Shown: piece after piece, positions 39,254-59,795 of the stretch
Numbering within the stretch: the first letter of the stretch is position 1
How the letters are laid out: every line of letters starts with the position of its first letter
Assembly: GCA_963781585.1 (NCBI GenBank)
Contig: CAWAGQ010000005.1
Span: 352,001-416,000 of the forward strand
From: an uncultured Gemmatimonadaceae bacterium
GTDB taxonomy: Bacteria > Gemmatimonadota > Gemmatimonadetes > Gemmatimonadales > Gemmatimonadaceae
DNA length: 64,000 bases
Reading direction: 5' to 3'
Translations under genes and position numbers: made by a program
Notes under the pieces: generated by a model
Seen by the model: only the letters and a program-made list of their open reading frames with translations
The model's database searches: none
What the model was told of the DNA's origin: nothing

Positions 39254-39573
39254 CGCCGGCGGCCGGCACCGGGCTGCCGGACGACGCTGGACAGGCGGGG
39301 AGCTCCGATCGGGAGACGCGCCTGCGCGCGCTGGCGCAGGCGCGCTGGAAGGTCGCCGCCACGCTCACGGTGTGCATGGTGGCCGTGTACTTCGGCTTCA
39401 TCCTGCTGATCGCCTATGACAAGGCACTGCTGGCGACCCTGATCACGCCTGGGCTCACGCTGGGCATCCTGCTCGGCGCGCTGGTGATCGTGGTCGCCTG
39501 GCTGCTCACGTGGGTGTACGTGTGGTGGGCCAACGCCCACTACGATCGGGCCCTGCGGGATCTCGGGACGTAA
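39250..39573 (+). CDS. DUF485 (YjcH-like) membrane protein
   Basis: YFGFILLIAY, W.YV.WAN..YD; immediately upstream of actP. Confidence 0.88.
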   Translation: MTPAAGTGLPDDAGQAGSSDRETRLRALAQARWKVAATLTVCMVAVYFGFILLIAYDKALLATLITPGLTLGILLGALVIVVAWLLTWVYVWWANAHYDRALRDLGT

Positions 39574-39583
39574 CCAGCCGCCC

Positions 39584-41158: not shown

Positions 41159-41302
41159 GCTTCGCTACTGCCCGGCGCACCGCGACCTGCGGTGGGCGCC
41201 GAACCAGCACCAGGATACTGGCGGATACGTCGCGCACGTGCTGTTTCCGGCACGTGACGGGCGTCGCCATCCCGTCCCGCCTTCATCGTTAACTTCCGCG
41301 CC

Positions 41303-43462
41303 ATGGTCGTTGATCGGACAAGGATTCCATACCTTCCGGAGCGCATCGAAGGCCTCGCCATCGTCGCCACGAATATCGCGTGGAGCTGGAACAGGGACGC
41401 CCGGCGCCTCTTCCAGCTCATCGATGACCCGCTCTGGCATCTCACGCGCCACAATCCGATCGCCATTTTCCGTCGGATCGACCCCCAGCGGTTGAACGAC
41501 TGCGCCCGGGACCCGGCGTTTCTCGAGCTCTACGACCGTGTGATGACGGAGCTCGATCTCCTTCGCACCACCCACGGCACGTGGATGGCACGCGAATATC
41601 CGGACATCGACCAGACACGACCGGTGGCGTACTTCTGCGCCGAGTTCGGGCTGCACAACTCGGTCCCGATCTACTCCGGAGGGCTGGGCGTGCTGGCCGG
41701 CGATCACTGCAAGAGCGCCTCCGATCTGGGTGTCCCGCTGACCGGTATCGGCCTGTTCTACACGAAGGGCTATTTCGACCAGCAATTGCGGCTGGACGGA
41801 TGGCAGGAGGACTCGGACGAGCAGTTCGACGTGATGAACACGCCGCTCGAACGGGTGTACGGCGCCGGTCGCGAGGCACACCTCACGAGTGTGCTCACCA
41901 GCGGCCGGGAGATCTTCATCGGCGCCTGGCGCATGCTGGTGGGGAGGGTGCCGGTGTACCTGCTCGACACCGATCTCGAACAGAATCACCCCGACGACCG
42001 CGAACTCACGTCGAAGCTGTACGCCGGCGGTCCCGAGGTCCGGCTGCGAACAGGAGTGGATCCTGGGTGTGGGCGGCGTGCGCGTGTTGCGGGCAATGGG
42101 CGTCGCTCCTGCGGCCTGGCATGCCAACGAAGGCCATGCGGCCTTCATGATGGTGGAGCGTGCGCGGGAACTGGTGGCGGCGGGCGACACCTTCGAGGGA
42201 GCCATGCGGGATGTGCGGGCGCGCTCGATCTTCACGACGCACACGCCGGTTCCAGCGGGCCACGACACGTTCTCGGTGGGGCAGGTGGAACAATGCACGG
42301 GCCGGTCTGGGAGACGCTGGGGGTGGACCGCGAGACGTTCTTCGCGATCGGCCGGCATCCGGAGCAGGCGCAGGATCAGTTTCACATGACGGTAGCAGCC
42401 ATCCGGATGTCGAAGTTCGTGAATGGCGTTTCACGGCGGCACGGTGAGGTTTCCCGCCAGCTCTGGGCGCCGCTCTGGCCGGGCCGTTCGGTGGAGGAGG
42501 TCCCTATCGGGTGCATCACCAACGGAGTGCATCTGGCCACCTGGATGACGCGGGACATGATGGGCCTGCTGGATGCGCAGTTCGGGGCCGACTGGGGGAG
42601 GCAGGTTGACGAGCCGCAGTTCTGGGACCGGATGCTGGAGCTGGACGACGAGCGGCTCTGGCAGTTGCGCACCGCACTGAAGTCGGCGCTCCTGAACTTC
42701 GTGCGCGAGGAGGCGCGGCGTCGCTGGGCGCGTCACTGGAAGGAGGCGACGCACGTGGTAGGCGCCGGGACGCTTCTCAACCCGAAGGCGTTCACGATCG
42801 GGTTCGCGCGACGATTCGCGACGTACAAGCGCGCGGACCTCATCTTCCGGGACATCGAACGCCTGCGGGTGCTGCTTGTGAACCCCGCGCGTCCGGTGCA
42901 GATCATCTTTGCCGGGAAGGCGCACCCGGCCGATACGCCGGGGAAAGAGGTGCTGCGCACGGTGTACGGATTCACACGCGACCCGCGGCTGGAAGGACGG
43001 GTGGCCTTTCTCGAGGACTACGAGCTCCATCTGGCGCATCGACTGGTGCAGGGCGTGGACCTCTGGCTCAACCTGCCACGGGTGCCATTCGAGGCGAGCG
43101 GGACGAGCGGCATGAAAGCGGGACTGAACGGCGTGCCGCAGGTCTCCACGCTCGACGGCTGGTGGCACGAGGGATACGAGGGACTCAACGGGTGGGCGAT
43201 CCCGCCGGCATCGTCGCGGTCGACGCCTGACGAGTGGGATGCCGATCAGCTGTATCGGCTGCTGGAAGAACAGGTTGTTCCGCTCTACTATACGCGAGAT
43301 GAGCGGGATGTCCCGGTGGGGTGGGTGGAGAAGATGAAGCACGCCATCCGCGTCGCGGGCCAGCAATTCACGGCCCGTCGCATGCTGCGTGAGTACGTGA
43401 CGCGGTGTTATGGGCCGGCCATGCGCGGCAATAACATCCCCGATGATCCGCCCGGAGGTTGA
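41303..43462 (+). CDS. glgP: Alpha-glucan phosphorylase, carrying two compensating frameshifts (about 42050 and 42301)
   Basis: YFCAEFG, YSGGLGVLAGD, ITNGVH, GFARRFATYKR, EASGTSGMK; the conserved QE..LG, NEGH and FTTHTPVPAGHD motifs lie in the +1 frame. Confidence 0.92.
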   Translation: MVVDRTRIPYLPERIEGLAIVATNIAWSWNRDARRLFQLIDDPLWHLTRHNPIAIFRRIDPQRLNDCARDPAFLELYDRVMTELDLLRTTHGTWMAREYPDIDQTRPVAYFCAEFGLHNSVPIYSGGLGVLAGDHCKSASDLGVPLTGIGLFYTKGYFDQQLRLDGWQEDSDEQFDVMNTPLERVYGAGREAHLTSVLTSGREIFIGAWRMLVGRVPVYLLDTDLEQNHPDDRELTSKLYAGGPEVRLRTGVDPGCGRRARVAGNGRRSCGLACQRRPCGLHDGGACAGTGGGGRHLRGSHAGCAGALDLHDAHAGSSGPRHVLGGAGGTMHGPVWETLGVDRETFFAIGRHPEQAQDQFHMTVAAIRMSKFVNGVSRRHGEVSRQLWAPLWPGRSVEEVPIGCITNGVHLATWMTRDMMGLLDAQFGADWGRQVDEPQFWDRMLELDDERLWQLRTALKSALLNFVREEARRRWARHWKEATHVVGAGTLLNPKAFTIGFARRFATYKRADLIFRDIERLRVLLVNPARPVQIIFAGKAHPADTPGKEVLRTVYGFTRDPRLEGRVAFLEDYELHLAHRLVQGVDLWLNLPRVPFEASGTSGMKAGLNGVPQVSTLDGWWHEGYEGLNGWAIPPASSRSTPDEWDADQLYRLLEEQVVPLYYTRDERDVPVGWVEKMKHAIRVAGQQFTARRMLREYVTRCYGPAMRGNNIPDDPPGG

Positions 43463-43502
43463 GCGGCAGGCGTGATGACCGAGGGTGAGGGGGAGACGGG
43501 CG

Positions 43503-45122
43503 ATGGCAGGGAAACGGAAGACTCCGGAGAGCGCACCAGGAGCACCGGAACGACCCCGTCGGCAGCGGCGGGCCCCGGCAGTCGTGCCCGTTGTGCCGGT
43601 GCCGCGTCCCGTAGTTCCTAACGAGTCTCCGCTGGTCGCCCCATCCGGCGAGCCGGTTACCGTGGTTCACCTTGCGGCTGAGCTCGCGCCCTTCGCGCGG
43701 ACCGGGGGCCTTGGCGAGGCGGTGTCGAGTCTGGCGCACTACCAGGCCCTGACCGGGCTCGCCGCGGTCATCGTGATGCCGTTGTACCGGCAGGTTCGGG
43801 ACGTGGTGTCCGACCTGGTTCCCGTGGGAGAGCCGTTCCCCGTGACGGTCGGGCCGCGAACCGAGCTGGCGCGGCTCTACGAGTCGCGGGCGCTCCAGTC
43901 GAACCCGGCGGAGGGCAAGCCGCGCATCCTGTTCGTCGAGAACGCGGAGTACTTCGACCGGGACCATATCTACGGAACGTCGCAGGGGGACTATCCGGAC
44001 AATCATCGGCGGTTCGCGTTCTTCTGCTTCGCCGCCCTGAACGCGCTCCCGTCGATTGCCGGGAAGCCGGTGATTCTCCACGCGCACGACTGGCATGCGG
44101 CTCTGGCGCCGGTGTACCTGCGCGTCTTCGACGGGGGTCCCGGGCGCGAGTTCTATCGAAACACGTCGTCGGTACTGACGGTGCATAACGCGGGTTTTCA
44201 GGGGCAGTTCGCGCCCGACGTACTCGCCGACCTGGGGCTTCCCTGGGAGCTGTACAATTTTGCCCAGCTGGAGTGGTACGGACGGGTGAACATCCTGAAG
44301 GGGGGCCTGGCATTCGCCGACGCCGTGTCTACGGTGAGCCCTACGCATGCGCACGAACTACGCACGCCGGCCGGCGGCTTCGGCCTGCACGACGCATTCA
44401 TCAGCCTGCGCGAGCGCTTCGTCGGTATCGTCAACGGCATCGATCAGCGCGAATGGAATCCGGAGACGGACCCCGTCATTACCAGTCGCTATAGCCGCGA
44501 GGACCTGTCGGGGAAGAAGCGATGCAAGAGTGCGCTTCAGCGGATCTTCGGGCTGCCACAGCGGTCGCGGGTGCCGATTTTCGGCATGAGCGCCCGAATG
44601 GTCTATCAGAAGGGCCTCGATCTCATTCTGGGCAGCCCCCGGTTCCTCTCGCTCGACGCACAGTTCCTGTTCCTGGGGCAGGGCGAGAAGCGGTACGTGG
44701 ATACGCTCACCGAGCTGGCGCTTCGGGCCCCGGGACGGATCGGCGTGCAGACCGATTTCACCAGTGTGCAGGAACATCGGTTGATGGCCGGCGCCGATGT
44801 GATCATCATGCCTTCGCAGTATGAGCCGTGCGGCCTTACCCAGATGCGGGCGCAGCGCTATGGCGCACTGCCGGTGGCGCGGCGTGTTGGCGGGCTGGCC
44901 GACACCATCGAGGACGGAGTCACCGGATTCCTTTTCGATGACTTCAGCACCAGCGATTTTCTTTCGGCGTGCGTGCGCGCGATCGACCACTACCAGCATC
45001 CCGCGACGTGGAATCCCATGCAGCGGGAAGCGATGTCGCGCGACTTCGGCTGGGAGCGATCGGAGCAGAAGTATCTGGAGCTGTACCGCCGGGTGCTGGC
45101 ATCGCCGCGATTCCGCCGGTGA
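43503..45122 (+). CDS. glgA: Glycogen/starch synthase (GT5)
   Basis: PFARTGGL, HAHDWH, TVHNAGFQG, NGID..W.P, QKG, EPCGLTQM, VGGLADT. Confidence 0.95.
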   Translation: MAGKRKTPESAPGAPERPRRQRRAPAVVPVVPVPRPVVPNESPLVAPSGEPVTVVHLAAELAPFARTGGLGEAVSSLAHYQALTGLAAVIVMPLYRQVRDVVSDLVPVGEPFPVTVGPRTELARLYESRALQSNPAEGKPRILFVENAEYFDRDHIYGTSQGDYPDNHRRFAFFCFAALNALPSIAGKPVILHAHDWHAALAPVYLRVFDGGPGREFYRNTSSVLTVHNAGFQGQFAPDVLADLGLPWELYNFAQLEWYGRVNILKGGLAFADAVSTVSPTHAHELRTPAGGFGLHDAFISLRERFVGIVNGIDQREWNPETDPVITSRYSREDLSGKKRCKSALQRIFGLPQRSRVPIFGMSARMVYQKGLDLILGSPRFLSLDAQFLFLGQGEKRYVDTLTELALRAPGRIGVQTDFTSVQEHRLMAGADVIIMPSQYEPCGLTQMRAQRYGALPVARRVGGLADTIEDGVTGFLFDDFSTSDFLSACVRAIDHYQHPATWNPMQREAMSRDFGWERSEQKYLELYRRVLASPRFRR

Positions 45123-45260
45123 ACGGGCAATGCATCGGTTTCAGGCGACTGTTGACCCGTGGCTGACGGCGATTGCCGCTGGCCATGACCTCGACGCCGG
45201 AAACATCAACGCAGGTCCCGCCGTCGGATCGGATGGCTTCCTTGAACGCGGGACGCTTCC

Positions 45261-46403
45261 ATGAAATGGTCGTGGCGAATCGGCCGCGTGGCCGGGATCG
45301 TGATCGAAATCCACGTCACGTTTCTCTTCCTGCTGCTGTGGATCGCACTCGTCGAGCAGCAGCGCGGTGGGACCGCGGCGTCCATCGCCGGGGCCCTGCT
45401 GTTCACGGTGGCGGTGTTCGTGTCCGTCGTGTTGCACGAATATGGCCACTCGCTCACCGCCCGACGTTTCGGCGTGCGGACGCGCAGCATCACGATCCTT
45501 CCCATCGGTGGTGTGTCGTCGCTCGAACGCATTCCGTCCGAGCCGCGTCAGGAACTGGCCATTGCCCTCGCCGGGCCGGCGGTAACGGTCGCCATCGTGG
45601 TGCTGTTGTTCCTGGTCCTCCTGGTCACCGGCCGGCCGGTCCTCGTGAAGGATCTGAGCTTCAGTGGTAGTCAGTTCCTGGCTCGGCTCATGTGGGTAAA
45701 CGTCGTGCTGGCGGTATTCAACGTCCTGCCGGCGTTCCCGATGGACGGTGGACGGGTGCTCCGCGCCGCGCTGGCGCTGCGGATGGAGTACGCCCGCGCC
45801 ACCAGAGTGGCCGCCACGATTGGGCGCGCATTCGCGGTCCTGTTCGCCATCGCAGGGTTCTTCAGCAATCCGTTTCTCGTCTTCATCGCGATCTTTGTCT
45901 GGATGGGCGCAACCGGCGAGAACTGGAGCGCACAGCTGCAATCGGCATTGCGCGGCTTGCCGGTGGAACGCGTGATGATCCGCGACCTTCGTACTCTTGC
46001 TCCGAACGACACGCTGGGACGTGCGGTGGAGCATCTCCTGGCCGGTTTCCAGCAGGACTTTCCGGTGCTCGACGGAGAGCACCTGGTAGGCGTATTGCCG
46101 CGCACCGATCTGATGAAGGCGTTGGCGCAGCGCGGCCCTGAAGCGCCGGTTCACGGGGCGATGCGCTCGGACTTCCCGATCGCTCATCCCGAAGAGCCGC
46201 TGGACGAGGCTTTTACGCGCCTGCAGCAGGCGAAATGCCATACGATGCCCGTGGTGAAGGGAGGCGTGCTGCAGGGGGTGCTGACGCTGGACAACGTGGG
46301 AGAATTCTTCATGGTGCAGGGGGCGGCGGGGAATCAGCGCGCGCGTTCCACAGGTCGGACGGCAGAGACCGGTCGCCGGCATCCTGCCGTCAGTCACCGG
46401 TAG
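45261..46403 (+). CDS. Site-2 protease (M50) with tandem CBS domains
   Basis: HEYGH, PIGG, AGP, FNVLPAFPMDGGR; C-terminal CBS pair. Confidence 0.93.
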   Translation: MKWSWRIGRVAGIVIEIHVTFLFLLLWIALVEQQRGGTAASIAGALLFTVAVFVSVVLHEYGHSLTARRFGVRTRSITILPIGGVSSLERIPSEPRQELAIALAGPAVTVAIVVLLFLVLLVTGRPVLVKDLSFSGSQFLARLMWVNVVLAVFNVLPAFPMDGGRVLRAALALRMEYARATRVAATIGRAFAVLFAIAGFFSNPFLVFIAIFVWMGATGENWSAQLQSALRGLPVERVMIRDLRTLAPNDTLGRAVEHLLAGFQQDFPVLDGEHLVGVLPRTDLMKALAQRGPEAPVHGAMRSDFPIAHPEEPLDEAFTRLQQAKCHTMPVVKGGVLQGVLTLDNVGEFFMVQGAAGNQRARSTGRTAETGRRHPAVSHR

Positions 46404-46477
46404 GCGCTGATGGGCGGTTACCGATCAGTGGGCGATCCTTGATCTTTCGCCCCTGATGATTGGCCGCTGGTTCCCAG

Positions 46478-48619
46478 GTGAACCCCCGACCTCCGACCCA
46501 CTTGGCATCTCTCGTCATTCACGGCCACTTCTATCAGCCACCGCGCGAGAATCCGTTTCTCGACGAGGTCGAGGCGGAGTTGTCGGCTGGACCATATCAC
46601 GACTGGAACCAGCGGATCGAGCGCGAATGCTATCGGGCGGTGGTAGCCGCCCGCGTAACCGGGCACGACGGCCGAATCGCGCGCATCGTCAATACGCTCG
46701 AGTGGATCTCCTTCAACTTCGGCCCGACGCTGCTCGAATGGCTGGAACGTGAGGCGAACGACACATATCGATCGATCCTGGCCGCGGATGACGCGAGCCG
46801 AAATCGGCTCGCTGGTCACGGCAATGCGATAGCCCAGCCGTATCATCACACCATCCTGCCACTGGCCTCGCGGCGCGACAAGCAGACCGAAGTGCGGTGG
46901 GGGATGGCAGACTTTCGCCGACGCTACGGTCGCGAACCCGAGGGGATGTGGCTCCCCGAGACCGCGGTGGACGACGAAACGCTGGACGTCCTCGCCGCCG
47001 AGGGAATCCGCTTCACCATTCTGGCGCCACACCAGCTGGTGCCGGTGCCGCCACTGGGTCGCCCGGGGCGGTATCGCACGTCGGGCGGCCGCAGCATCGC
47101 CCTCTTCACCTATGATGGATCTCTTTCCCACGGGATCGCCTTCGGCGGACTCCTGCACGACGCCGATGCCTGGGTGAGCCGGATGGCCACGGCCGGGTCA
47201 CACCTGGCAATGGAGGACGGAGTGGGCGACGCCAGAGCGGCGGGACAGGAGAGTCCTCAGAGACGTGCGCCGGAAGAAGACCGGCCGACTGCCGCCAAGA
47301 CGCCGGAGCTGCTGCTCGCCATGGCAACGGATGGCGAAACGTACGGCCATCATCACCGATTCGGCGAAATGGCGCTGGCGCACGCGGTGGAGAAGATGCG
47401 TGCGGCGCAGTGGCGCGTCGAGAATTTCGCGTCGTTCCTTGCGCGCTCCCCCGCCACCGTTGACGTGGCGATCGTCACACCAAGCGCATGGAGCTGCGTG
47501 CATGGTGTGGAGCGGTGGCGGTCGAACTGTGGCTGCCGACTCGACGGTGGGCGCAATCCGAGCCAGGCGTGGCGAGCACCGCTGCGACAGGGACTGGAGA
47601 AGGTCGCCGCCAGGGTGCACGCCGTTTTCGAGGAGGAAGGGCGCGCCTTGTTCGACGATCCGTGGCGGGTGCGCGACGGGTACGGTGCGGTCGTGGCGGG
47701 GGGCGCAGACGAGCTCGCACGATTCGCCGGGGAGCGCGTTCGCCATCCGGCGTCCGTGGAACAGCTCGTACGGGCACGGGAGCTGCTCGAGATGGAACGC
47801 GATACCCTGCGCATGTTCACCTCGTGTGCCTGGTTCTTCGACGATATCGGAGGATTGGAGGCACGCCAGGTCCTCCGCTACGCGGCGCGCGCGATCGACC
47901 TGGCGGGAAGGGACCGCGACCGGCTCGAGGTACAGCTCCTCGACGAGCTCTCGATGGCGGGCAGCAACGACGCGGCTCTCGGTAGCGGCAGCGACGTATA
48001 CCGCGCGGCCACCCGGGTGGCTGCTCCGGCTCCGGTTCGGATCGCCGCGGCGGCGATGGCCGGACTGCATGCTGGCGCACAGGCCGTGGTGCGCACCGGG
48101 AACGCCGAGGTGGAGATCGCGGGGGACACCGTTCGGGTGACGGAGTCCCGTACGGGCCGCCGTCATCAGCTGCGCGCGCGGGTCGTGCGCTCCTCACACA
48201 CCGAGGTCGTGACCGAGGTGGCCGACGAGCAGGACGTCCGATACCGACTCTCGCTGGCTGACCTGCCGGAGCGCCCCCGCCACGCCATTCGATCCCGGTT
48301 GAGGCGGTCCATTCTGCCCGGCTGCCTGACGCCGGGCGAGATCGACCTGCTGCTGGTGGGCGACGTGACACTGGGCGGATTGGTGCGCGTGGCCCTGGTC
48401 CGGACGGTGAAGCGGCTGGAGCAGGATCACGACGGGGAGGCGCTGCAGCTGGTCAACGCGCTCCTCGATCTGATCGAACAGTCCGAGGGCAAGGTTCCCT
48501 TCGACGCGCAGACCGCCTTCTGGCGTATCTGGCAGCGTGCCAATCGGGAGCGACGCGCGGATCTGCACGAACTCCACGTGCGGCTGGGGTTCGTGGACAG
48601 CGAAACAGGCGACGCCTGA
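46478..48619 (+). CDS. GH57 family glycoside hydrolase (DUF3536 type)
   Basis: HGHFYQPPRENP, SFNFGPTL, GMWLPETA (nucleophile Glu), TDGETYGHH, WSCVHGVERW, MFTSCAWFF. Confidence 0.9.
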   Translation: MNPRPPTHLASLVIHGHFYQPPRENPFLDEVEAELSAGPYHDWNQRIERECYRAVVAARVTGHDGRIARIVNTLEWISFNFGPTLLEWLEREANDTYRSILAADDASRNRLAGHGNAIAQPYHHTILPLASRRDKQTEVRWGMADFRRRYGREPEGMWLPETAVDDETLDVLAAEGIRFTILAPHQLVPVPPLGRPGRYRTSGGRSIALFTYDGSLSHGIAFGGLLHDADAWVSRMATAGSHLAMEDGVGDARAAGQESPQRRAPEEDRPTAAKTPELLLAMATDGETYGHHHRFGEMALAHAVEKMRAAQWRVENFASFLARSPATVDVAIVTPSAWSCVHGVERWRSNCGCRLDGGRNPSQAWRAPLRQGLEKVAARVHAVFEEEGRALFDDPWRVRDGYGAVVAGGADELARFAGERVRHPASVEQLVRARELLEMERDTLRMFTSCAWFFDDIGGLEARQVLRYAARAIDLAGRDRDRLEVQLLDELSMAGSNDAALGSGSDVYRAATRVAAPAPVRIAAAAMAGLHAGAQAVVRTGNAEVEIAGDTVRVTESRTGRRHQLRARVVRSSHTEVVTEVADEQDVRYRLSLADLPERPRHAIRSRLRRSILPGCLTPGEIDLLLVGDVTLGGLVRVALVRTVKRLEQDHDGEALQLVNALLDLIEQSEGKVPFDAQTAFWRIWQRANRERRADLHELHVRLGFVDSETGDA

Positions 48620-48632
48620 AGGCCGCGAGCCG

Positions 48633-50702
48633 ATGACCGCGATCCGGTTCTGCTTCGGACTGCACCTGCACCAGCCGGTGGGGAACTTCGACCACGTAAT
48701 CGAGCAGCACGTACGCGACGTGTACCGGCCATTCCTCGAACGCATCCGGGTGCACGGGTTCCTGCCGGTGGCGCTGCACATCTCGGGACCGCTGCTGGAC
48801 TGGCTCGAGAAACGCGATCATCGCTTTCTCGATCTGCTGGGCGATCTGACCGCGGACGGAAAGATCGAATGGTTGCTGGCAGGCTACGACGAGCCCGTGC
48901 TGGCGGCGCTACCGCGTGTTGACCGCCTGGAACAGATCGCGTGGATGCGCGAGGCGCTTCGGGCACGCTACGGAGCCGCGGCCACTGGTCTGTGGCTCAC
49001 TGAGCGGGTGTGGGAGCCGGACCTGGCTGCCGACCTGCACGACGCCGGTGTGCGCTTCGCGCTGGTCGACGACCGGCACTTCGTGGTCACCGGCTTCCGA
49101 CGCGACCAGCTGCACGCGCCGTACTGGACGGAACACGGAGGGAAGCAGCTGGCGCTCTTTCCGATCGACGAGCGACTGCGGTACCTGATCCCCTTCGAGG
49201 CGGTTGCGGAAACGGGGAACTACCTGCGCGGGCTGCGAGAGGCTGGTCACCGGCTGGCCGTGCTGGCGGACGACGGGGAGAAATTCGGCGGATGGCCGGG
49301 CACGAAGGAGTGGGTCTACGATCGTGGGTGGCTGGATGGGTTCTTCGCGGCGATGCACGAGCAGGTCTCCAATGGCGACGTGGTCCTCTCCACCTTCGCC
49401 GATGCGCTCGACACGGTGCCGAGCGGCGGCATCGCGTATCTGCCGACCGCGAGCTATCGCGAGATGGAAGCCTGGTCACTGCCGACGGCGCAAGCGCAAC
49501 GGCTCACCGCACTCGAACAGCAGCTTGGGGCCGACCGCATGGCGGGGCCGGATGGCGCGCTGGTGCGGGGCGCGCACTGGAAGAACTTCTTCGTCAAGTA
49601 TTCGGAAGCGAACCGGATGCACAAGAAGATGCTTGCGCTCTCGGTGCTGTGCCGCGAACGCGGCGATCCCGCTGCGGCGCGGCGCGCCGTCGGTCGCGCC
49701 CAGTGCAACGATGCGTACTGGCACGGGGTCTTTGGCGGCCTCTACCTGCCGTTTCTCCGGGCGGCTGTGTGGCGGAATCTGGCTGAAGCAGAGCGGCTCC
49801 TGCGTATGGGCGAGCCGCTCCGCGCGGAGGAGACGGACATCGATGGCGATGGTCACGCGGAGGTGTGGATCCACTCGGCCCACTTTTCGGCGGTCGTGAG
49901 TCCATATCGCGGCGGGGCGATCGAGGAGCTGACCCGGTTCTCGGTCGAGCCAGACACCGTCCCCGGTGCTTCGGAAGAGACACGTCCGGCAGCGGAAAGA
50001 CACATCGACGCCGGGCCTGCAGACGTGCCAGCCGCTGCCGACGGCTCGCCGGTCGGCGCGAATCACGCGGATGTGCTCACGCGGCGCCGCGAAGCGTATC
50101 ACGTGCTGGCCGACCCATGGTACGAGGCGCAGACGAACGCCGAGGCAACCATGCCAGGGGCAACGGCGCCGAACGAACCTCAGTCGGCGGCGAGTACACC
50201 CAGCATCCATGAGCTGGAGCACGGCTTTCGGCTTCGCGAACTGCCGGCCGTAGACCTCGACGATCGGGCGATCTTCATCGAGCGCGTGATCGCGGGCTCG
50301 GTGACGCGGGATGAGTTCGCGCGTGCGCAGTATCAGCCGGTGGCCTCGGCGGCACGGATCGCGATGGCCTGCCGCGTGCGTCGGTCGGAATCGCGCGTGG
50401 AGGTGGCGCTGGAAGCCCCGGACGGCCGGTTGCGCAAGACCCTGACGTTTCGACCGGATGGTAGAGTGCGCGCGGATTTCGTGTGGGACCAGCGGGCGTT
50501 TGCGGAGAGCGATTGGTTCACCATCGAGCTGTCCCTCGACCGTGCGCTCCCCGTGGCGTGCACGCCGAGCACCGAGGTGTGGGAGTATCCGATCGAGACG
50601 GTATCCAAATCGGAGAAGGGATTGGATCGCGTGCGCCAGGGTGTCGCGGTGGTCGTGCGGTGGCCGGTGGCGCAGGGGCGGGGCAGCGTGGACCTGGGGT
50701 GA
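48633..50702 (+). CDS. GH57 alpha-amylase / 4-alpha-glucanotransferase
   Basis: HLHQPVGN, GLWLTERVWE, DDGEKFG.WP, AQCNDAYWHGVFGGLY, ETVSKSE.G. Confidence 0.92.
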   Translation: MTAIRFCFGLHLHQPVGNFDHVIEQHVRDVYRPFLERIRVHGFLPVALHISGPLLDWLEKRDHRFLDLLGDLTADGKIEWLLAGYDEPVLAALPRVDRLEQIAWMREALRARYGAAATGLWLTERVWEPDLAADLHDAGVRFALVDDRHFVVTGFRRDQLHAPYWTEHGGKQLALFPIDERLRYLIPFEAVAETGNYLRGLREAGHRLAVLADDGEKFGGWPGTKEWVYDRGWLDGFFAAMHEQVSNGDVVLSTFADALDTVPSGGIAYLPTASYREMEAWSLPTAQAQRLTALEQQLGADRMAGPDGALVRGAHWKNFFVKYSEANRMHKKMLALSVLCRERGDPAAARRAVGRAQCNDAYWHGVFGGLYLPFLRAAVWRNLAEAERLLRMGEPLRAEETDIDGDGHAEVWIHSAHFSAVVSPYRGGAIEELTRFSVEPDTVPGASEETRPAAERHIDAGPADVPAAADGSPVGANHADVLTRRREAYHVLADPWYEAQTNAEATMPGATAPNEPQSAASTPSIHELEHGFRLRELPAVDLDDRAIFIERVIAGSVTRDEFARAQYQPVASAARIAMACRVRRSESRVEVALEAPDGRLRKTLTFRPDGRVRADFVWDQRAFAESDWFTIELSLDRALPVACTPSTEVWEYPIETVSKSEKGLDRVRQGVAVVVRWPVAQGRGSVDLG

Positions 50703-51508
50703 GACAGAACCTCCAGTATCTCCGGAAGTGGATTGCACGGCGGCGTGTCCCTCCCGGCGCCCTCGACGTGATTCCTGATGTGGAGAGCCGGGAACTCGGG
50801 AACCGGCGCGACGTGCTGGTCTATCGTCCGAGCTCCTACGATCGGACGGACGAACCCTATCCCGTCATCTACATGCACGATGGACAGAACCTGTTCGATC
50901 CGGCCACCAGTTTTGCGGGCGAATGGGGAGTGGACGTCGCCCTCGACAAGGCACCGCGCAAGGGCCGGCGGGCGCTCATCGTCGGGATTCCCAACACCGG
51001 AATCGACCGGGTTCGCGAGTATTCGCCATTCGTGGACCCGCGACAGGGCGGCGGGCTGGGCAACGCCTATCTCGACTTCCTGGTGGGGACCGTCAAACCC
51101 CTGGTGGACAGCCGGTATCGGACCCTTACCGACGCATATGGGACCGGAATCGCCGGGTCGTCACTGGGTGGTCTGATCAGCCTCCATGGCTTCTTCCGCC
51201 AGCCGTCGCGGTTCGGCTTCGCGGGGGTGCTGAGCCCGGCCCTCTGGTTCGCGGATGGCGCCATCTTCCACGCGGTCGAGGCGGCGCCGTATGTTCCCGG
51301 GCGCATCTATCTCGACGTGGGCGGGCGGGAGGGCGCCGGCGCAGTGCGCGATGCGCGCCGGATGCGCGATCTGCTGATCGCGAAGGGATACCGTCCGGGG
51401 AAGACATTGCTCTGGCGCGAGGATCGGACGGGGCTGCATAACGAGGCGGTGTGGGGCCGTCGGTTTCGCAGCGCCCTGCCGTTCCTGCTCAGCGGCGACG
51501 TCACCTGA
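50699..51508 (+). CDS. Alpha/beta hydrolase, putative esterase
   Basis: YPVIYMHDGQNLFD, GSSLGG nucleophile elbow, YLDVG..E, HNE..W; GTGA overlap with the GH57 stop. Confidence 0.9.
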   Translation: MRQNLQYLRKWIARRRVPPGALDVIPDVESRELGNRRDVLVYRPSSYDRTDEPYPVIYMHDGQNLFDPATSFAGEWGVDVALDKAPRKGRRALIVGIPNTGIDRVREYSPFVDPRQGGGLGNAYLDFLVGTVKPLVDSRYRTLTDAYGTGIAGSSLGGLISLHGFFRQPSRFGFAGVLSPALWFADGAIFHAVEAAPYVPGRIYLDVGGREGAGAVRDARRMRDLLIAKGYRPGKTLLWREDRTGLHNEAVWGRRFRSALPFLLSGDVT

Positions 51509-51509
51509 C

Positions 51510-52238
51510 ATGGGAACACGGCTCCATGGGCAGCATCATGCCTGGTACAGTCTGGTGGCCGGGCGCACGATGCACGTGCGCTGGTTCGGTCACGCGGGTG
51601 CCCGGGTGATCGCCTTCCCCACGACCATGGGGAACCACAACGAATGGCCGGATCGATCCATGCCCGATGTACTCGGCGAGCACATCGAGGAGGGGTGGAT
51701 TCAGCTCTGGTGCGTGGATCACAATCACGATGCGAGCTGGTACGACAAGTCGGCCCATCCAGGTCACCGCGCCTGGTTGCACCTGCAATACGATCGCTAT
51801 CTGCACGAGGAACTCCTGCCATTCACCGCGTACATCAATGCGACCCCATTCGTGATCGTCACTGGGGCCAGTTTCGGCGCGTACCATGCGATGACATTCG
51901 GCTTGCGTCATCCGCACCTGGTTCACCGTATCATCGGGATGAGTGGCTTCTACGATATCAAGGAGATGACCGACGGGTACTCCGACGAGAACGTGTATGC
52001 CTGCAATCCCTTCGACTTCATGCAGCACGAACACGACCCGGAGCGGCTCGACGCCTTCCGGCGGCAGGACATCATCATCGCGACCGGGCGGGGAGATCCC
52101 CACTACCAGGAGAATGCCGACTTCTCGGGCGTGCTGTGGAGCCGGGGAATCGGCAACGCCCTCCGCGTGTGGGACGGCTGGTGCCACGACTGGCCGTACT
52201 GGGAGCAGATGATCGTGAGGTACATGGGGGGGCATTAG
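51510..52238 (+). CDS. Alpha/beta hydrolase, putative esterase or transacylase
   Basis: FGHAG..VIAFPT, GASFGAYHA (GxSxG), HDWPYW. Confidence 0.88.
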   Translation: MGTRLHGQHHAWYSLVAGRTMHVRWFGHAGARVIAFPTTMGNHNEWPDRSMPDVLGEHIEEGWIQLWCVDHNHDASWYDKSAHPGHRAWLHLQYDRYLHEELLPFTAYINATPFVIVTGASFGAYHAMTFGLRHPHLVHRIIGMSGFYDIKEMTDGYSDENVYACNPFDFMQHEHDPERLDAFRRQDIIIATGRGDPHYQENADFSGVLWSRGIGNALRVWDGWCHDWPYWEQMIVRYMGGH

Positions 52239-52301
52239 AGAGGCCACAGGCCATAGGTCATCGCTCATAGGCCATGGCCACATCCGCTGCATCCACCGTT
52301 C

Positions 52302-53285
52302 ATGGAGCCCAACGCCACCATGTCGAAACGCATCGGCCTCTTCGTGGGCAGAGAGTGGTCCTGGCCGCCCGCCTTCATCGAGGAAGTGGAAAAGCGCGAC
52401 CAGGGGGTGACTGCGGAATACGCGAAGATCGGGGGCGAGCATCACGACGCGCCCTCGCCGTACGACGTCCTCATCGACCGGATTTCGCACGAGGTGCCGA
52501 TGTACCGGTCGTACCTCAAGAAGGCGGTGCTGGACGGACGAACGGTGGTGAACAACCCCTTCATGTGGACGGCCGACGACAAGTTCTTCGGCGCGGCGCT
52601 GATCCGCCGCCTCGGCGTGGCGTCGCCCAGGACCGTGCTCCTGCCGAACAAGGACTACATCGAGGGCATCGTGCCGCACGAGAGTCTGCGCAACCTCCGG
52701 TATCCGCTGGACTGGAAGGAAATCGTCGCCTGGGTGGGGCTGCCGTGCGTGCTCAAGGATGCGCACGGCGGGGGCTGGAAGGAGGTGCACGTCTGCCGCT
52801 CGCTCGACGAGCTGATCCACCGCTACGATCAGTCTGGCCGGCTGACGATGATCGTGCAGGAGTTCATCGAGTGGGACCACTTCGTGCGCTGCCTGTGCAT
52901 TGGCCGGCAGGGAGTGCTGCCCATGAAGTACGACCCCGGTGCGCGGAAGTATCTGGTGGAGCACGAGCACCTCACCCCCGAGCTGGGGGCCCGCGTGGTG
53001 ACCGATTCGCTGACCATTGTCCGCGCGTTAGGCTACGACATGAACTCGATCGAGTGGGCCATTCGCGATGGAATCCCCTACGCGATCGATTTCATGAACC
53101 CGGCGCCGGACATGGACGTGTATTCGCTGACGCCGATGTACTTCGAGTGGGCGGTGGAGAAAATGGCGACGATGGCGATTCGCCTGGCGAAGACGGCACA
53201 CCTCCAGGTCGCCGAACTCCACTGGAGTCGGCTGTTCAGCCACGATGCGCATCGCAGCGCGGCGCCATCCCCGGTCGCACGATGA
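52302..53285 (+). CDS. RimK/GshB-like ATP-grasp ligase
   Basis: IDRISH, NNPF..ADDKFF, LKDAHGGGWK, VQEFI, NSIEWA..AIDFMNPAPD; start 52302 or 52320. Confidence 0.88.
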   Translation: MEPNATMSKRIGLFVGREWSWPPAFIEEVEKRDQGVTAEYAKIGGEHHDAPSPYDVLIDRISHEVPMYRSYLKKAVLDGRTVVNNPFMWTADDKFFGAALIRRLGVASPRTVLLPNKDYIEGIVPHESLRNLRYPLDWKEIVAWVGLPCVLKDAHGGGWKEVHVCRSLDELIHRYDQSGRLTMIVQEFIEWDHFVRCLCIGRQGVLPMKYDPGARKYLVEHEHLTPELGARVVTDSLTIVRALGYDMNSIEWAIRDGIPYAIDFMNPAPDMDVYSLTPMYFEWAVEKMATMAIRLAKTAHLQVAELHWSRLFSHDAHRSAAPSPVAR

Positions 53286-53394
53286 TCCACCGCGGACGGG
53301 CGGTGATCAGGAGTCGCCGGTGGGCTGACGTGACGGCGCGCAGGAGGCATCGCGTCGGAAGCAGGATCGTACCGCCTTTGTCCCGCTGCCCGCC

Positions 53395-54744
53395 GTGCTG
53401 CACGACGCCATAGCGCGATACCACGACCTGCTGACGCCGGAGCTGGCGGAGGCATCAGCCGAGCACCTGGACCATGCGCTGCGCCGGCATGGGCTGGTGT
53501 TCGGCGACCGGCCACTGTGCACGGTGCTGCGGCCGCGTCTGCTGACCGCCGAAGCCTATCGGCGACTCCAGGGGCGCATCGTGCCGCTCATGCGGGCGTT
53601 TCGCGCCGCGCACGAACGGGCAATGATCGACCGCGGGTTCCGGACGCAGTTCCGGCTCGGGGAGTGGGAAGAAGCACTCCTCGCCGCAGACCCCCGGTTC
53701 GATGCGCCAAGCCCGACCTCGCGGCTCGACTTCTTCTACGCGCCCGATACGGACGTCCTGGGCCTGACGGAGTACAATGCCGAGACGCCGGCTGGTGCGG
53801 CCTATAGCGACGCGCTGGCAGAGGTCTTTCTCGATCTGCCGGCGATGCGCGCTTTCGCCGCGGACTACGAGATCCTGCCGGTGCCCTGTCGGCAGGGTGT
53901 GATCGGCGCACTGCTGGACGCCTACTATCAGTTCGCCGGCTCGCGCGATCGTCCGCGGATCGCGATCCTCGATTGGCACGACGTGCCCACGCGTACGGAG
54001 TTCGAGTTGTACGCCGAGCACTTCCTGGCCCTTGGAATCGAGTGCGTGATCGGTGACCCGCGCCAGGCGGACTATCGACAGGGACAATTGTGGATCGGTG
54101 GGACCCCGGTCACCCTGATCTACAAGCGGGTGCTGATCAGCGAGCTGGTGACCCGGTGCGGGCTCGACTCGCCGGTGGTGCGGGCGGTCCGGGACGGCGC
54201 GGTGTGCATGGTGGACGGATTCCGCTGCAAGATCCTGCACAAGAAGGCGAGCCTCGCGGTGCTGAGCGACGAACGGAACGCGCATCTGTTCGGGGCTGCC
54301 GAGCGGCGGGCCATCGCCGACTGCATCCCGTGGACCCGGGTGGTCGAAGAGCGCCACACGACCTGCCGGGACGAGGCGGTGGACCTGGTGCCGTTCATCA
54401 TCCGTGAGCGGGAGCGCTTCGTGCTCAAGCCTAACGATGATTACGGAGGGCGGGGAATCACCTTGGGCTGGCGCGTGGACGGGAGCCAGTGGGAGGCGGC
54501 GGTCCGCAACGCGCTGGCCGAGCCGTTCATCGTCCAGGAACAGGTGGCCGTGCCATCGGAACCGTATCCCGGCTGGGTCGACGGCCGGCTGCAGATTCTC
54601 GAGCGGCAGTACGATACCGCGCCGTTCATCACCAACGGTGCCTACATGGAGGGCATGCTGGCGCGGCTGTCGACCGACACGCTGCTCAACGTGACCGCCG
54701 GCGGCGGGAGCACGGTGCCCACGTTCCTGGTGGAGAAGCGGTGA
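53395..54744 (+). CDS. Circularly permuted ATP-grasp ligase (glutathionylspermidine synthase-like fold)
   Basis: [38 protein letters not shown]...LNVTAGGG. Confidence 0.86.
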
Positions 54745-54922
54745 GGGGGACCGGCGGCCCCGGCCGGCACGGCGGCCACAGGCCCGGCATGGCACCGGCG
54801 TGGCCCTTCGCCGTCCGCCGACGCCGCGCTCCGGGATCCGGAGGTTACGCCGGCCCACCGGCGAGGTTGATCCGTCGGCCGCGCCGCGCCATGATGGCGT
54901 CTCCCCTGCCCGACACCTCCGC

Positions 54923-56131
54923 ATGAACCGCCCAAGCCTGACGATCGGGGTCGAAGAGGAATACCAGATCATCGATCCCCGCACCCGGGAGCTGCAGTCG
55001 TACATCACGCAGATTCTCGAGGCCGATCACCTGATCATGGGACAGGTGAAGCCCGAGCTGCACCAGTCGATCGTGGAAGTGGGCACCAACGTCTGTCACA
55101 CACCCGGCGCCGTGCGCGACCAACTGCTCGCGCTCCGGCGCGGCGTGATGGAACTGGCGGCCAGGAACGGACTCAAGATCGCGGCCGCCGGAACGCATCC
55201 GTTCTCGCACTGGGCCGAGCAGGAGATCACGCCGCTGGAACGCTACATCGGCACGCGTGAGGCGATGGCGCAGCTTGCCCAGCAACTCCTGATCTTCGGC
55301 ACGCACGTGCACATCGGCATCGAGGATCGCGATTTCCTGATCGACTGCGCGAACGTCTCGCGCTATGTCCTCCCCCATATCCTCTGCCTCTCCACCAGCT
55401 CGCCCTTCTGGATCGGACGCAACACCGGCCTCAAGTCGTATCGGAGTGCCATCTTCCGCGCGTTCCCGCGCACCGGCATCCCGCCCTTCCTCGCTTCCTG
55501 GAACGACTACCAGGCCTACCTCCGCACCCTGGTCGCCACCGGTTGCGTCCCCGACGGGTCGAAGATCTGGTGGGACGTGCGCCCGCATCACCAGTTCCCG
55601 ACTCTCGAATTCCGGGTGTGCGATGTCTGCACCCGCGTCGAGGAAGCGGTGTGCATTGCCGCCATCCTGCAGGCGCTGGTGTTCAAGCTGTGGAAGATGC
55701 GCCGGGACAACGTCACCTTCCGCATCTATCCCGCCGAACTGATCGAAGAGAACAAGTGGCGCGCCGTACGCTACGGTCTCGATGGCAAGCTGATCGACTT
55801 CGGCCGCGAAACGGAACTGCCCGCCCCCGCGCTGATTCGCGAGTTTCTCGACTGGTTCCTGGGCGACGTGGTCGATGAGCTTGGAAGCCGGCGGGAAGTG
55901 GAATACGCCCAGCACATTCTGGAGCACGGCTCCAGTGCGGATCGCCAACTGGCTACCTTCGGGGAGACGGGGAGTCTGCAGGCGGTGGTGGACCGGCTCA
56001 TCACCGAGACGGAGGAAGGCGTTCACCCACCGCACGAGCCGGCAGGCGCCGTGAAGGACACCCACTATCGCGCGGTTTCGCAGTCCAGGCCCGAGGCGCT
56101 CGCTCCCGAGATCGGGCCGCCGCCGAGCTGA
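54923..56131 (+). CDS. Carboxylate-amine ligase, YbdK/GCS2 family
   Basis: [57 protein letters not shown]. Confidence 0.94.
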
Positions 56132-56145
56132 CGGCACACGCAGTC

Positions 56146-56919
56146 ATGCGACCGATTATCGGAGTCACCACCCAGACGCTGCAGGCGATCGATGGCATTC
56201 CCCCCGGACTGCCCGCGTCGGTGGTGATGAATCAGCGATACTATGACGCCGTGGCCGACGCCGGTGGAGCACCCATCCTCATTCCCCTGTTTGACGATGC
56301 CACCGACGTGTTGCGCGGCGTGTACGACGTGTGCGACGGGATCCTCATCCCCGGGGGCGTGGACATGCACCCGGCCTGTTTCGGTGAGGCTCCCCATGAG
56401 CGCCTCGGCCGCACGGACCAGGTCAGGGATCGGGTGGAACTGCAACTCACGCGGTGGGCCATCGACAACGGAAAACCGCTGCTGGGACTGTGCCGCGGAC
56501 TGCAGGTGATCAATGTGGCGCTCGGGGGCACGCTCTATCAGGATCTGGGGACGGAGCGCGCCGGCTCCATTCGCCACGACTACTTCCCGACCCACGGTTA
56601 CACGCGCGACTACCTGGCGCACGAGGTCGCACTCCACAGCGGCACGCGGCTGTTCGAGGCGATGGGCCGTGATCGGATCGCGGTCAACAGCATGCACCAC
56701 CAGGGCATCAAGGACCTTTCTCCCACGCTCGTCCCGGCGGCCACTGCGCCCGATGGGCTGGTGGAAGGAGTGGAGGGGCCGGGCGATCAGTACCTGGTGG
56801 GTGTGCAGTGGCACCCCGAGGTGTTCGAGTCCGCCGACGCGCATACACGGCGCCTGTTCGAGAGCTTCCTGGCAGCCAGCCGCACCTTCCGCGATCGGAG
56901 CGTCGCACGAACCGCGTGA
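56146..56919 (+). CDS. Gamma-glutamyl-gamma-aminobutyrate hydrolase family (peptidase C26, class I GATase)
   Basis: RPIIGVT, IPGGVD, GLCRGLQ (Cys nucleophile), NSMHHQ, VQWHPE. Confidence 0.93.
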   Translation: MRPIIGVTTQTLQAIDGIPPGLPASVVMNQRYYDAVADAGGAPILIPLFDDATDVLRGVYDVCDGILIPGGVDMHPACFGEAPHERLGRTDQVRDRVELQLTRWAIDNGKPLLGLCRGLQVINVALGGTLYQDLGTERAGSIRHDYFPTHGYTRDYLAHEVALHSGTRLFEAMGRDRIAVNSMHHQGIKDLSPTLVPAATAPDGLVEGVEGPGDQYLVGVQWHPEVFESADAHTRRLFESFLAASRTFRDRSVARTA

Positions 56920-57660
56920 GGAGCGCGGTGCTGGTCGCGACGCTGGCGTTGTCGCTCCCGGGCTGCACGCGCGGCCTGCGGCTGGTGGACGAGTCCGGGG
57001 CGCGGGTGGTCATCACCGGTGGTCCGTGGGCGAGCATGGTCTATCTGGCGGCCACCGATAGCGGCGTGATCGCCATCGACCTGGGCTGGGGTGGGGCGGA
57101 GCGGAAGATGCGGCAGGCGCTGACCGAGCTTGGCGCCACCCCTTCCGACGTGCGCTATGTCTTCCTCACCCACGCGCATCGTGATCATACCGCCGCCTGG
57201 CGCATCGTGCGTGGTGCCACGTTCGTACTCGGCGTGGCGGAGGTGCCGTTCTTCACGGGAACGGCCCGGTATCGCGGGCTGCTGCCGCGTATTGGCGATC
57301 GCCTGGTGCCGTACCCGCGGGCCGCAACCCGGCGAGCTGCACGTGCTGGCGTTAGGCGCGGACACGGCATTCGCCTTCGGTCGCGACACCGTCCTGGCCT
57401 TCGGCGTGCCGGGTCACACCGCGGGCAGCACCGCGTACCTGATGCGGAGCGTCCTGTTCGCGGGCGACGCGATCAACTGGCGGCCGTGGACCGGGTTTCG
57501 CGGGGCGCGTCCCGAGTTCTCGGATGATGTGGCGCGGAGCCGGGCCAGCATGCGAGCGCTCTGGCTGCGCGTGGATTCGTCGCGCGTGCACGTGGCGTGC
57601 AGCGCCCACGCCAAGTGTGGCCGCGTGACAGCGGCGGTTCGTGAGGCGACCAGCCGGTAG
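56916..57660 (+). pseudogene. MBL-fold metallo-hydrolase lipoprotein split by a +1 frameshift at about 57321 (pseudogene or sequence error)
   Basis: LPGC lipobox and LTHAHRDH in frame 56916; PGHTAGS, LFAGD and CSAH in the next frame ending at 57660; extra G in CGG-G-CCG. Confidence 0.75.
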
Positions 57661-57794
57661 GCGGGCGGACAACGTACCGACGGCCAGCCGAGGCACACCG
57701 TGCGCGCGAATTGCCACCCGGCAGCGCGGGCACTGCGGTTCAACCTCCGGGAGACCGTGCGGAGGAGCCACACAGACGGTTCCGGGTTGACCGT

Positions 57795-59516: not shown

Positions 59517-59795
59517 GGAATCCCGTCGGCCGGCGATGAGAGTCACGACTTTCAGCGGCGACGCGACGGTGCCGCACAGATCGCCCCTCGCCGCGTCCAC
59601 ATGGCTCCGCCGCGCACGCCAGCCAATGGGTCACACTGTCCCAAATGGCGGCGGACCGCAAGCCGTCGACCACTTCTTCATCGAGAATTCATCTTCGTGT
59701 AATCCATCCCTCATGACGGCGTCACCTGCCGGGTGAACAATGACGGAGAGCGCGATGGGCGCTTGTGCCTGCTCACCCTGGCTTCGGAGATCACC

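Follow-up and report, generated by a model that had tools for sequence, protein, structure and literature searches.

The 64-kb window described here (the whole stretch of 64,000 nucleotides analysed from contig CAWAGQ010000005.1 of an uncultured Gemmatimonadaceae soil bacterium, with a G+C content of about 66% and best matches in Gemmatimonadaceae) contains a single co-directional run of 11 genes between positions 41303 and 56919, all on the + strand, defined from the list of open reading frames (ORFs) and from Pfam and NCBIfam matches. The array consists of two modules. The first is an alpha-glucan set that includes a GlgP-type phosphorylase, glycogen synthase GlgA, an M50 metalloprotease with CBS domains (M50-CBS), two GH57 proteins (GH57a and GH57b) and a serine esterase (esterase 1), and the second is a ligase set composed of another esterase (esterase 2), a Ddl/RimK-like ATP-grasp ligase, an ATP-grasp ligase with a glutathione-synthetase fold, a GCS2 ligase and a peptidase C26 protein. 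We favor the explanation, at a probability of roughly 55%, that the two modules are co-expressed and physiologically associated. Under this explanation two modules with separate evolutionary histories would be joined head to tail in this genome as one operon; alongside the phosphorylase, GlgA and the two GH57 enzymes, we infer that esterase 1 would strip an ester-linked group from glycogen or malto-oligosaccharides during their turnover, and the ligase module would most likely build and recycle a small gamma-glutamyl-type peptide or amide. What is new, and ties these genes to glycogen, is that esterase 1 belongs to one supported clade with esterase domains that are fused to GlgX and to GH57-DUF3536 proteins.

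Esterase 1 (50699–51508) is a PF00756/CE1-type serine hydrolase of 269 amino acids, matching the Pfam model at 102.7 bits against a cut-off of 22. No carbohydrate-binding module (CBM) is detected in it by Pfam and no hydrophobic leader is seen when its N-terminus is read directly, and it is predicted to be an intracellular CE1-type serine esterase. Its putative catalytic triad, assigned like that of esterase 2 from motif position and not from structure, is well conserved, with the motif G-S-S155-x-G and D206 each found in 52 of 55 sequences and H247 in 54 of them, and the Ser, Asp and His positions are kept in both its stand-alone and its fused forms. The best matches among solved structures, found by sequence (E = 4e-11 to 1e-9), are the Bacteroides CBM48 feruloyl esterases 6mot/6mou and 7b5v and the IroE-like siderophore esterases 6gud and 3gff, with which it shares an alpha/beta-hydrolase fold and a GxSxG nucleophile. 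However, esterase 1 is without the N-terminal CBM48-like domain of the feruloyl esterases, and its relatives are joined to GlgX, GH57, GH13, GH31 and CBM20 rather than to xylan or siderophore genes. A preliminary description of this region had pointed to antigen 85 as a member of the putative-esterase family that acts as an acyltransferase onto sugars, but there are no mycolyltransferases among the 26 Protein Data Bank sequence matches of esterase 1 (E≤0.01) or the four of esterase 2 (E≤1), and neither protein shows a special closeness to antigen 85.

A search for longer relatives of esterase 1 gave 282 matches, and fusion partners were counted from the precomputed Pfam column for the best 120 of these. 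Alpha-glucan domains are present in 53 of these best 120. Parts of GlgX/GH13 proteins (CBM48, an alpha-amylase domain or an isoamylase C-terminal domain) occur in 39, CBM20 in 11, GH57 with DUF3536 in two, and GH31 and GH35 in one each; a Por secretion tail is found in 40, and the remaining class, with nothing else listed or with other domains, numbers 26. All but one of the top 34 longer relatives are fusions to glycogen enzymes, and these are 47–56% identical over 88–94% of esterase 1, as close as many of its Gemmatimonadota orthologues (44–66% identical). A Pfam scan of 14 fusions shows the domain order to be CBM48-GH13-esterase in the GlgX fusions (about 990 residues) and GH57-DUF3536-esterase in proteins of about 1090 residues, such that the esterase domain is C-terminal in both types. 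The check put forward in the preliminary description, for esterases fused to CBM20 or CBM48, thus gives a positive answer for the relatives of esterase 1 and a negative one for the window esterases themselves, which are single-domain proteins.

The relationship between the fused and stand-alone forms is also seen in a tree of 143 esterase domains, in which one clade with a Shimodaira-Hasegawa-like approximate likelihood ratio test (SH-aLRT) value of 96 unites 22 esterases of ligase clusters, including that of the window, with 31 GlgX-fused domains, two GH57-fused domains and one other; the tree is the product of a quick search and is rooted on esterase 2, an outgroup with a very long branch. 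Furthermore, over about 600 residues GH57a shares 42% identity with the N-terminal part of the GH57-DUF3536-esterase fusion P0282, so that GH57a and esterase 1 match, one half each, what is elsewhere a single protein. We conclude from these comparisons that esterase 1 has a putative accessory role in the metabolism of intracellular alpha-glucan. Bacterial glycogen is regarded as an undecorated alpha-glucan, and the fusion of this esterase to GlgX in dozens of protein clusters, together with its presence in or beside the glycogen sets of another phylum, would imply an ester-linked substituent or an ester substrate in glycogen turnover. We found no description of GlgX-esterase fusions, of this cluster, or of the link between glycogen genes and ligases in Gemmatimonadota in the literature searched on related topics, in which no search was aimed directly at ester groups or amino acids on glycogen.

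The junctions of the array are tight at two places. First, the genes of GH57b and esterase 1 overlap by 4 nucleotides (nt), GTGA (50699–50702), in the stretch ...CTG GGG TGA, where the G at 50699 opens the GTG start of esterase 1 (50699–50701) and the TGA stop codon of GH57b occupies 50700–50702. Secondly, the stop codon of esterase 1 (51506–51508) is separated from the ATG of esterase 2 at 51510 by a 1-nt gap at 51509. Gaps elsewhere in the array range from 13 to 178 nt. The overlap and the 1-nt gap had been recognized in the preliminary description, as had the run of co-directional glycogen genes into the esterases and ligases, and all are confirmed at the same coordinates. A G ahead of a TGA stop is expected by chance about one time in three at 66% G+C, so the tetranucleotide alone means little; the weight comes instead from the homologue-supported start and the unbroken co-directional array. 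The GTG start is backed by L003 and L063, the most closely related loci in which the upstream frame is closed by a stop codon and the ATG aligns with the GTG of the window, and the N-terminal motif LQYLRKW is common to all three proteins.

Same-strand genes with overlaps or few-base gaps are usually co-transcribed, and by this rule the array is probably one operon in which the two modules are co-transcribed, with probable translational coupling of esterase 1 to GH57b and of esterase 2 to esterase 1. Consensus scans of positions 39000–58500, which are weak for this phylum, gave one promoter-like site (2.0 in shuffled sequences) and seven terminator-like sites (6.6 in shuffled sequences), none of them at 50.7 or 51.5 kb. 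The RNA folding at six junctions is no better than that of shuffled sequences (z from -0.05 to 1.26), and neither an Rfam scan of the whole window nor a repeat search found a known RNA or a repeat at the junctions. Because esterase 1 belongs to the glucan set, the GTGA overlap lies inside that set and joins two of its genes, and the junction between the glucan and ligase modules is the 1-nt gap at 51.5 kb. Of the earlier proposal that the ligase cluster is translationally coupled to the glycogen genes, the physical coupling stands, and the identification of GTGA as the point at which they meet does not.

The organization of the ligase module was compared among 80 loci, which are the best-scoring of at least 593 confirmed matches to the second of the ATP-grasp ligases (449 residues) in a collection of species-representative genomes; the scan used an alignment of 19 sequences of this ligase, one of 56 sequences having been too diverse. 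There are 54 loci from Gemmatimonadota, 25 from Chloroflexota and one from Rhodothermota, to which the window proteins were compared by tblastn, with the genes of each locus called from ORFs picked by length and third-position G+C. Counts of upstream genes are from loci with at least 2.2 kb upstream, and those of GCS2 and C26 from loci with at least 2.6 kb downstream. An ATP-grasp gene adjoins that of the 449-residue ligase in all 55 loci (37/37 in Gemmatimonadota, 17/17 in Chloroflexota and 1/1 in Rhodothermota), with esterase 2 as the next gene upstream of this pair in 25/37, 16/17 and 1/1, respectively. Esterase 2 thus belongs to the ligase module, whose core is esterase 2 and the two ATP-grasp ligases. 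GCS2 lies downstream in 44/44 Gemmatimonadota, 4/19 Chloroflexota and 1/1 Rhodothermota loci, and C26 in 41/44, 0/19 and 1/1. In Chloroflexota the neighbours of the core are unrelated housekeeping genes, including DegV, a peptide chain release factor (PCRF/RF-1 domains), MaoC and a PBP. The ligase module appears from these distributions to be autonomous and self-contained, with an evolutionary history separate from that of the glucan module. Esterase 1 is present in the locus in 20 of 36 Gemmatimonadota, one of 17 Chloroflexota (L037) and the single Rhodothermota (L051) loci with enough flanking sequence.

Several genes absent from the window accompany the ligase module in some of its relatives. 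Some Gemmatimonadota clusters contain either a pair of ATP-grasp-like genes of about 405 residues or a PGM1-like ATP-grasp together with a 408-residue protein (L029, 14113–16591; L042, 4976–7460; L014, 861–3441; L024, 4104–6132; L016, 3254–6220). Two Chloroflexota loci (L027, 12547–14598, and L036, 12539–14611) have a gene of the S9 prolyl-oligopeptidase family with PD40 repeats after GCS2, in the slot held by C26 in Gemmatimonadota, and in L036 it appears to be split into two ORFs. In the Anaerolineales locus L062, the gene directly upstream of esterase 2 (6579–8243, + strand) codes for a subtilisin-like S8 peptidase that ends in a CBM48/AMPK glycogen-binding module, with a LacI regulator and a sugar ATP-binding cassette transporter further upstream. 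We also note that in the Gemmatimonadota locus L020 (2176–4165) genes for glutamine synthetase and a P-II nitrogen regulator lie on the upstream side of esterase 1, a few kb away.

Within Gemmatimonadota the two modules are regularly found near each other. By tblastn, 17 of the 54 loci from this phylum contain homologues of the glgP, glgA or GH57 genes, and among the 16 loci whose flank is 19 kb or longer the count is 10; Pfam adds L056, with GlgC and GH15, for a total of 11/16 full-flank loci that are linked within 10 kb. The linked loci show at least five arrangements, each of which is confined to one clade of a tree of the ligase (78 rows, quick IQ-TREE). The first is that of this window, with all genes co-directional. 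In the Gemmatimonas type (e.g. L019) the ligases are followed by convergent GH57b, GH57a, glgA and glgP genes. In the inserted type (L016, L025 and L080) the ligase block lies between GH57b and GH57a in the opposite orientation, and a divergent gap of 125–170 nt parts it from GH57b in L016 and L080; L044 is similar, with the block about 1 kb from GH57b, and L041 shows the GH57a side only. A second co-directional type (L031, L042, L046 and L052) contains glgA, a GH57 branching enzyme, an extra ATP-grasp, a 405-residue protein, esterase 1, esterase 2 and the ligases, with at most about 6 nt between the branching enzyme and the extra ATP-grasp genes, which overlap by 4 nt in L042. Finally, in L029 esterase 1 converges on GH57b. 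In four of these arrangements it is GH57b that directly adjoins the esterase/ligase block. The expectation that linkage would recur in other taxa is thus borne out inside the Gemmatimonadota and fails outside the phylum (see below), and we regard the link between the two modules as partly supported. Esterase 1 is the habitual neighbour of an uncharacterised and very widespread ligase module, which provides a testable lead both to what this module does and to a storage-glucan modification that may exist.

A number of observations weigh against a physiological association of the two modules. Homologues of the alpha-glucan genes are absent by tblastn from all 25 Chloroflexota loci and the Rhodothermota locus. 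In Pfam scans of the neighbours, which covered 142/185, 60/90 and 70/84 of the picked ORFs, alpha-glucan genes are absent from all nine full-flank Chloroflexota loci and all 12 non-Gemmatimonadota loci scanned, as well as from five of the 16 full-flank Gemmatimonadota loci (L003, L063, L068, L076 and L078). The junction of GH57b with esterase 1 seen in the window occurs in none of the 80 loci, including L003 and L004, which belong to the window's own clade and are its nearest relatives with upstream flank: ahead of esterase 1, L003 has a protein kinase gene, and in L004 about 7.4 kb of upstream DNA is free of alpha-glucan homologues; the head-to-tail fusion of the modules may therefore be recent and without functional meaning. 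The glucan genes are on the opposite strand in most of the linked relatives, so that there they are not co-transcribed with the ligases, and proximity within a single phylum can result from an inherited gene order altered by a few inversions. The 80 best-scoring loci are a sample biased to close relatives, promoter consensus scans are uninformative for Gemmatimonadota, and we know of no ester-decorated bacterial glycogen.

Many of these points would be explained if the modules had no functional relation, with esterase 1 serving glycogen only, the ligase module serving an unrelated peptide metabolism, and their proximity reflecting inherited gene order and local rearrangement. The restriction of each arrangement to one clade fits with this, as does the right flank of the window cluster (CarboxypepD_reg, PALP and LanC-like genes), which is syntenic with glycogen-free loci: L034 has both PALP and LanC-like genes, L076 a LanC-like gene and L078 a PALP gene, which suggests that it is the glycogen genes that moved and not the ligase cluster. 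However, proximity has outlived several rearrangements across deep Gemmatimonadota clades, persisting in the 11 linked full-flank loci; there are two different co-directional fusions; the ligase block lies between both GH57 genes in L016, L025 and L080; and esterase 1 accompanies esterase 2 even where there is no nearby glycogen gene, as the Gemmatimonadota counts and L037 and L051 show. On this balance we consider the lack of any relation to be unlikely, although of the alternatives it survives best. Were the linkage merely inherited gene order, the array would still be split into two modules, with esterase 1 placed in the glucan set.

A second alternative follows the proposal of the preliminary description, namely that the ligases build a glutamyl, aminoacyl or peptidyl group that is ester-linked to glycogen or malto-oligosaccharide, with the ATP-grasp enzymes acting as O-acyl ligases and the esterases and C26 removing the group, to give either a carbon-nitrogen reserve or a modified storage glucan. 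One conserved gene does tie the modules together in a way that this would account for, since esterase 1, lying beside the ligase core, is of the same kind as the domains fused to GlgX, GH57-DUF3536, CBM20 and GH13, and it stays with esterase 2 and the ligases without nearby glycogen genes at least once in each of three phyla. The recurrence of the neighbourhood in at least five arrangements, a second co-directional fusion among them, points the same way, as does the glycogen-binding S8 peptidase gene directly upstream of esterase 2 in L062. ATP-grasp enzymes such as D-Ala-D-lactate ligases and the microviridin/plesiocin macrocyclases can form esters, and both kinds are among the fold matches of the Ddl/RimK-like ligase of the window. 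Ester-linked acyl groups on an intracellular alpha-1,4-glucan have a precedent in the mycobacterial methylglucose lipopolysaccharide, which has a GH57 enzyme encoded in its locus; here acyltransferases add short fatty acids and succinate, no ATP-grasp ligases take part, and the phylum is a different one.

Against a peptide-decorated glucan, the Chloroflexota core is found without alpha-glucan genes and mostly without esterase 1, there is no CBM in any ligase or esterase of the window, and only two proteins came up as longer forms of esterase 2, neither of which has a CBM. Relatives of the 449-residue ligase on plasmids (about 25% identical) lie beside MATE/MFS exporters, other ATP-grasp genes and a gene of the glutamate-cysteine-ligase family, as would be expected in small-molecule biosynthesis, although they are too distant to count for or against linkage with glycogen. 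Amino acids on bacterial glycogen are not reported in the literature that we searched, though no search was aimed at exactly that. We regard such a polymer as improbable, more so than the absence of any relation. Its most specific form is a shade more doubtful again; in this, a glycogen or malto-oligosaccharide pool of Gemmatimonadota would carry ester-linked aminoacyl or gamma-glutamyl-peptidyl groups that are installed by the ATP-grasp/GCS2 ligases and stripped by the CE1 esterase before debranching, and the same ester chemistry may be present in those Chloroflexota with GlgX-esterase fusions. If correct, bacterial storage glucan would undergo a covalent modification of a kind not known before, and might serve as a reserve of carbon and nitrogen combined. 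A nitrogen reserve like that of cyanophycin synthetase was also considered and set aside, there being no Mur-ligase or S51 peptidase domain in any gene between 41303 and 56919.

Among the genes of the ligase module, the two ATP-grasp ligases were assigned with the help of AlphaFold2 (AF2) models compared with Foldseek. Esterase 2 (51510–52238; 242 residues) is a divergent PF00756 serine hydrolase (31 bits, cut-off 22), in which G-A-S121-F-G, D196 and H226 are invariant in 43/43 sequences. One protein, P0271 (469 residues, a single sequence), appears to join residues 1–178 of an esterase 1 to a complete esterase 2, and represents either a real fusion or a frameshifted gene call. The classical ATP-grasp ligase (52302–53285; 327 residues) is Ddl/RimK/LysX-like, with RimK matches that are only under the cut-offs, and an AF2 model (predicted local distance difference test [pLDDT] 81) whose Foldseek matches include Ddl, RimK and LysX with TM-scores (TM) of 0.56–0.65. 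An overlapping frame at 52274–53413 (379 residues) was rejected as a gene; its translation is arginine-rich and without a family match, and we regard it as an artefact of high G+C. The 52302–53285 frame has matches to ATP-grasp families.

The 449-residue ligase (53395–54744) is an ATP-grasp protein of the circularly permuted type with no Pfam or NCBIfam match above cut-off; of the glutathione synthetase/GspS models PF03917/PF03199, PF03738 and PF14403, two gave scores under their cut-offs (PF14403, 16 bits versus 32; PF03738, 12.6 bits versus 29.3). Its AF2 model, built with 19 relatives, has a pLDDT of 93, and the top Foldseek matches are human, plant and yeast glutathione synthetases (2hgs, 3kal and 8fbz; probability 1.00, TM 0.67–0.71), followed by 3n6x (a putative glutathionylspermidine synthase), Cp1B, GspS and YjfC/YgiC. 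The protein is thus predicted to have a glutathione-synthetase fold, but it fails family-level membership by sequence. Its own family is very large, with at least 3389 representatives at E≤1e-3 in an exhaustive search of 50%-identity representatives; in a word-index search, 7131 of 8000 candidates score E≤1e-3. The eukaryotic-type glutathione synthetases, the GspS/YjfC/YgiC proteins and fungal Cp1B of E-64 biosynthesis, described as an ATP-grasp in PMC12568646, share the fold of this ligase (E = 5e-18 to 1e-11, TM 0.6–0.7), with only 12–18% identity.

Downstream are the genes for the GCS2/YbdK-type carboxylate-amine ligase (54923–56131; PF04107, 193.8 bits versus 21; NF010039, 510.3 bits versus 371) and the Peptidase C26 protein, a putative class-I glutamine amidotransferase-like gamma-glutamyl hydrolase (56146–56919; PF07722, 204.9 bits versus 20.5). 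The GCS2 frame is open from 54800, and alignments with homologues begin at the ATG at 54923. The same enzyme classes as in this module are found in the amidoligase systems that Iyer, Abhiman, Burroughs and Aravind reportedly predicted in 2009, which are said to combine a circularly permuted ATP-grasp, COG2170/GCS2 and GAT-I peptidases and to make small peptides or peptide tags.

A third alternative for this module, and the one we rate as least probable, is a pathway for a low-molecular-weight gamma-glutamyl thiol or amide, in which gamma-Glu-X made by GCS2 is extended by the 449-residue ligase with a further residue, C26 breaks the product down and esterase 2 is a thioesterase like S-formylglutathione hydrolase, leaving shared stress or starvation regulation as the only tie to glycogen. 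The adjacency of the 449-residue ligase to GCS2 is that of a two-step gamma-glutamyl peptide pathway, and the glutathione-synthetase fold, the GCS2 match above its equivalog cut-off and the resemblance of C26 to the gamma-glutamyl-gamma-aminobutyrate hydrolase PuuD (117.9 bits, below the equivalog cut-off of 266) are all in keeping with it. PF00756 includes esterase D, and glutathione-synthase names and families are seen in a minority of the Atlas neighbours of both ligases. Among solved structures, FphF is the closest to esterase 2 by sequence and is annotated by similarity as an S-formylglutathione hydrolase (10.1101/2020.04.21.054437), but the match is weak (E = 3e-4). Moreover, GCS2 and C26 seldom or never lie beside the core in Chloroflexota, the two to three further ATP-grasp ligases in some relatives suggest a longer peptide, the partners in the window (esterase 2 and a Ddl/RimK-like ATP-grasp) differ from those of the glutathione and trypanothione pathways, and esterase 1 is left unexplained. 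Two associated modules remain the preferred explanation, in which we infer co-transcription, the esterase substrates and the ligase product, as well as any chemical connection of one module with the other.

The glucan genes are, from their family matches, ordinary members of their own families. The leftmost (41303–43462) encodes an alpha-glucan (maltodextrin/glycogen) phosphorylase of the GT35 type with DUF3417 (Pfam DUF3417 and Phosphorylase; TIGR02094, 644.1 bits versus a cut-off of 191.7), and is followed by that for the GT5 glycogen synthase GlgA (43485–45122; TIGR02095, 491.9 bits versus 328.45; PF08323 and PF00534), whose true start is possibly 40–60 codons inside the frame, homologues aligning from residues 44–58. 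GH57a (46460–48619; PF03065, 50.5 bits versus 21.2) is a GH57 protein with DUF3536, and GH57b (48633–50702) is of the alpha-amylase/4-alpha-glucanotransferase type (GH57, 120.7 bits versus 21.2, with AmyA-A_glucT_m and AmyA-gluTrfs_C), with its start most likely at ATG 48633, 13 nt past the GH57a stop, and not at 48537. The arrangement resembles that of bacterial glycogen clusters of the GH57 type, in which a phosphorylase, an ADP-glucose-type synthase and GH57 genes form one co-directional array, together with a GH57 branching enzyme and GlgC in the relatives considered here. It differs in running on into a CE1-type esterase and five further genes, and in its content, there being no GlgC, GlgB, GlgX or GH57 branching enzyme in the 64-kb window; this locus thus holds only part of a glycogen set, and the steps that it lacks would have to be encoded elsewhere. 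The M50 (site-2-protease-like) metalloprotease gene with two CBS domains (45261–46403; Pfam Peptidase_M50 and CBS) sits between glgA and GH57a, in the slot where relatives have the GH57 branching enzyme, and tblastn (E≤1e-8) detects nothing homologous to it in the 80 related loci.

The regions flanking the array contain genes of other kinds. To the left (39250–41158), genes for a small DUF485 membrane protein and a sodium:solute symporter, a pairing that we take to be typical of acetate permease loci, end 144 nt from the phosphorylase gene. To the right (57795–64000) are a CarboxypepD_reg-domain protein encoded on the - strand, a TonB C-terminal domain protein, a PALP enzyme, a LanC-like protein and the start of a pyridoxal-phosphate-dependent decarboxylase gene. 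The sole Rfam match in the window is a transfer RNA gene at 3581–3653.

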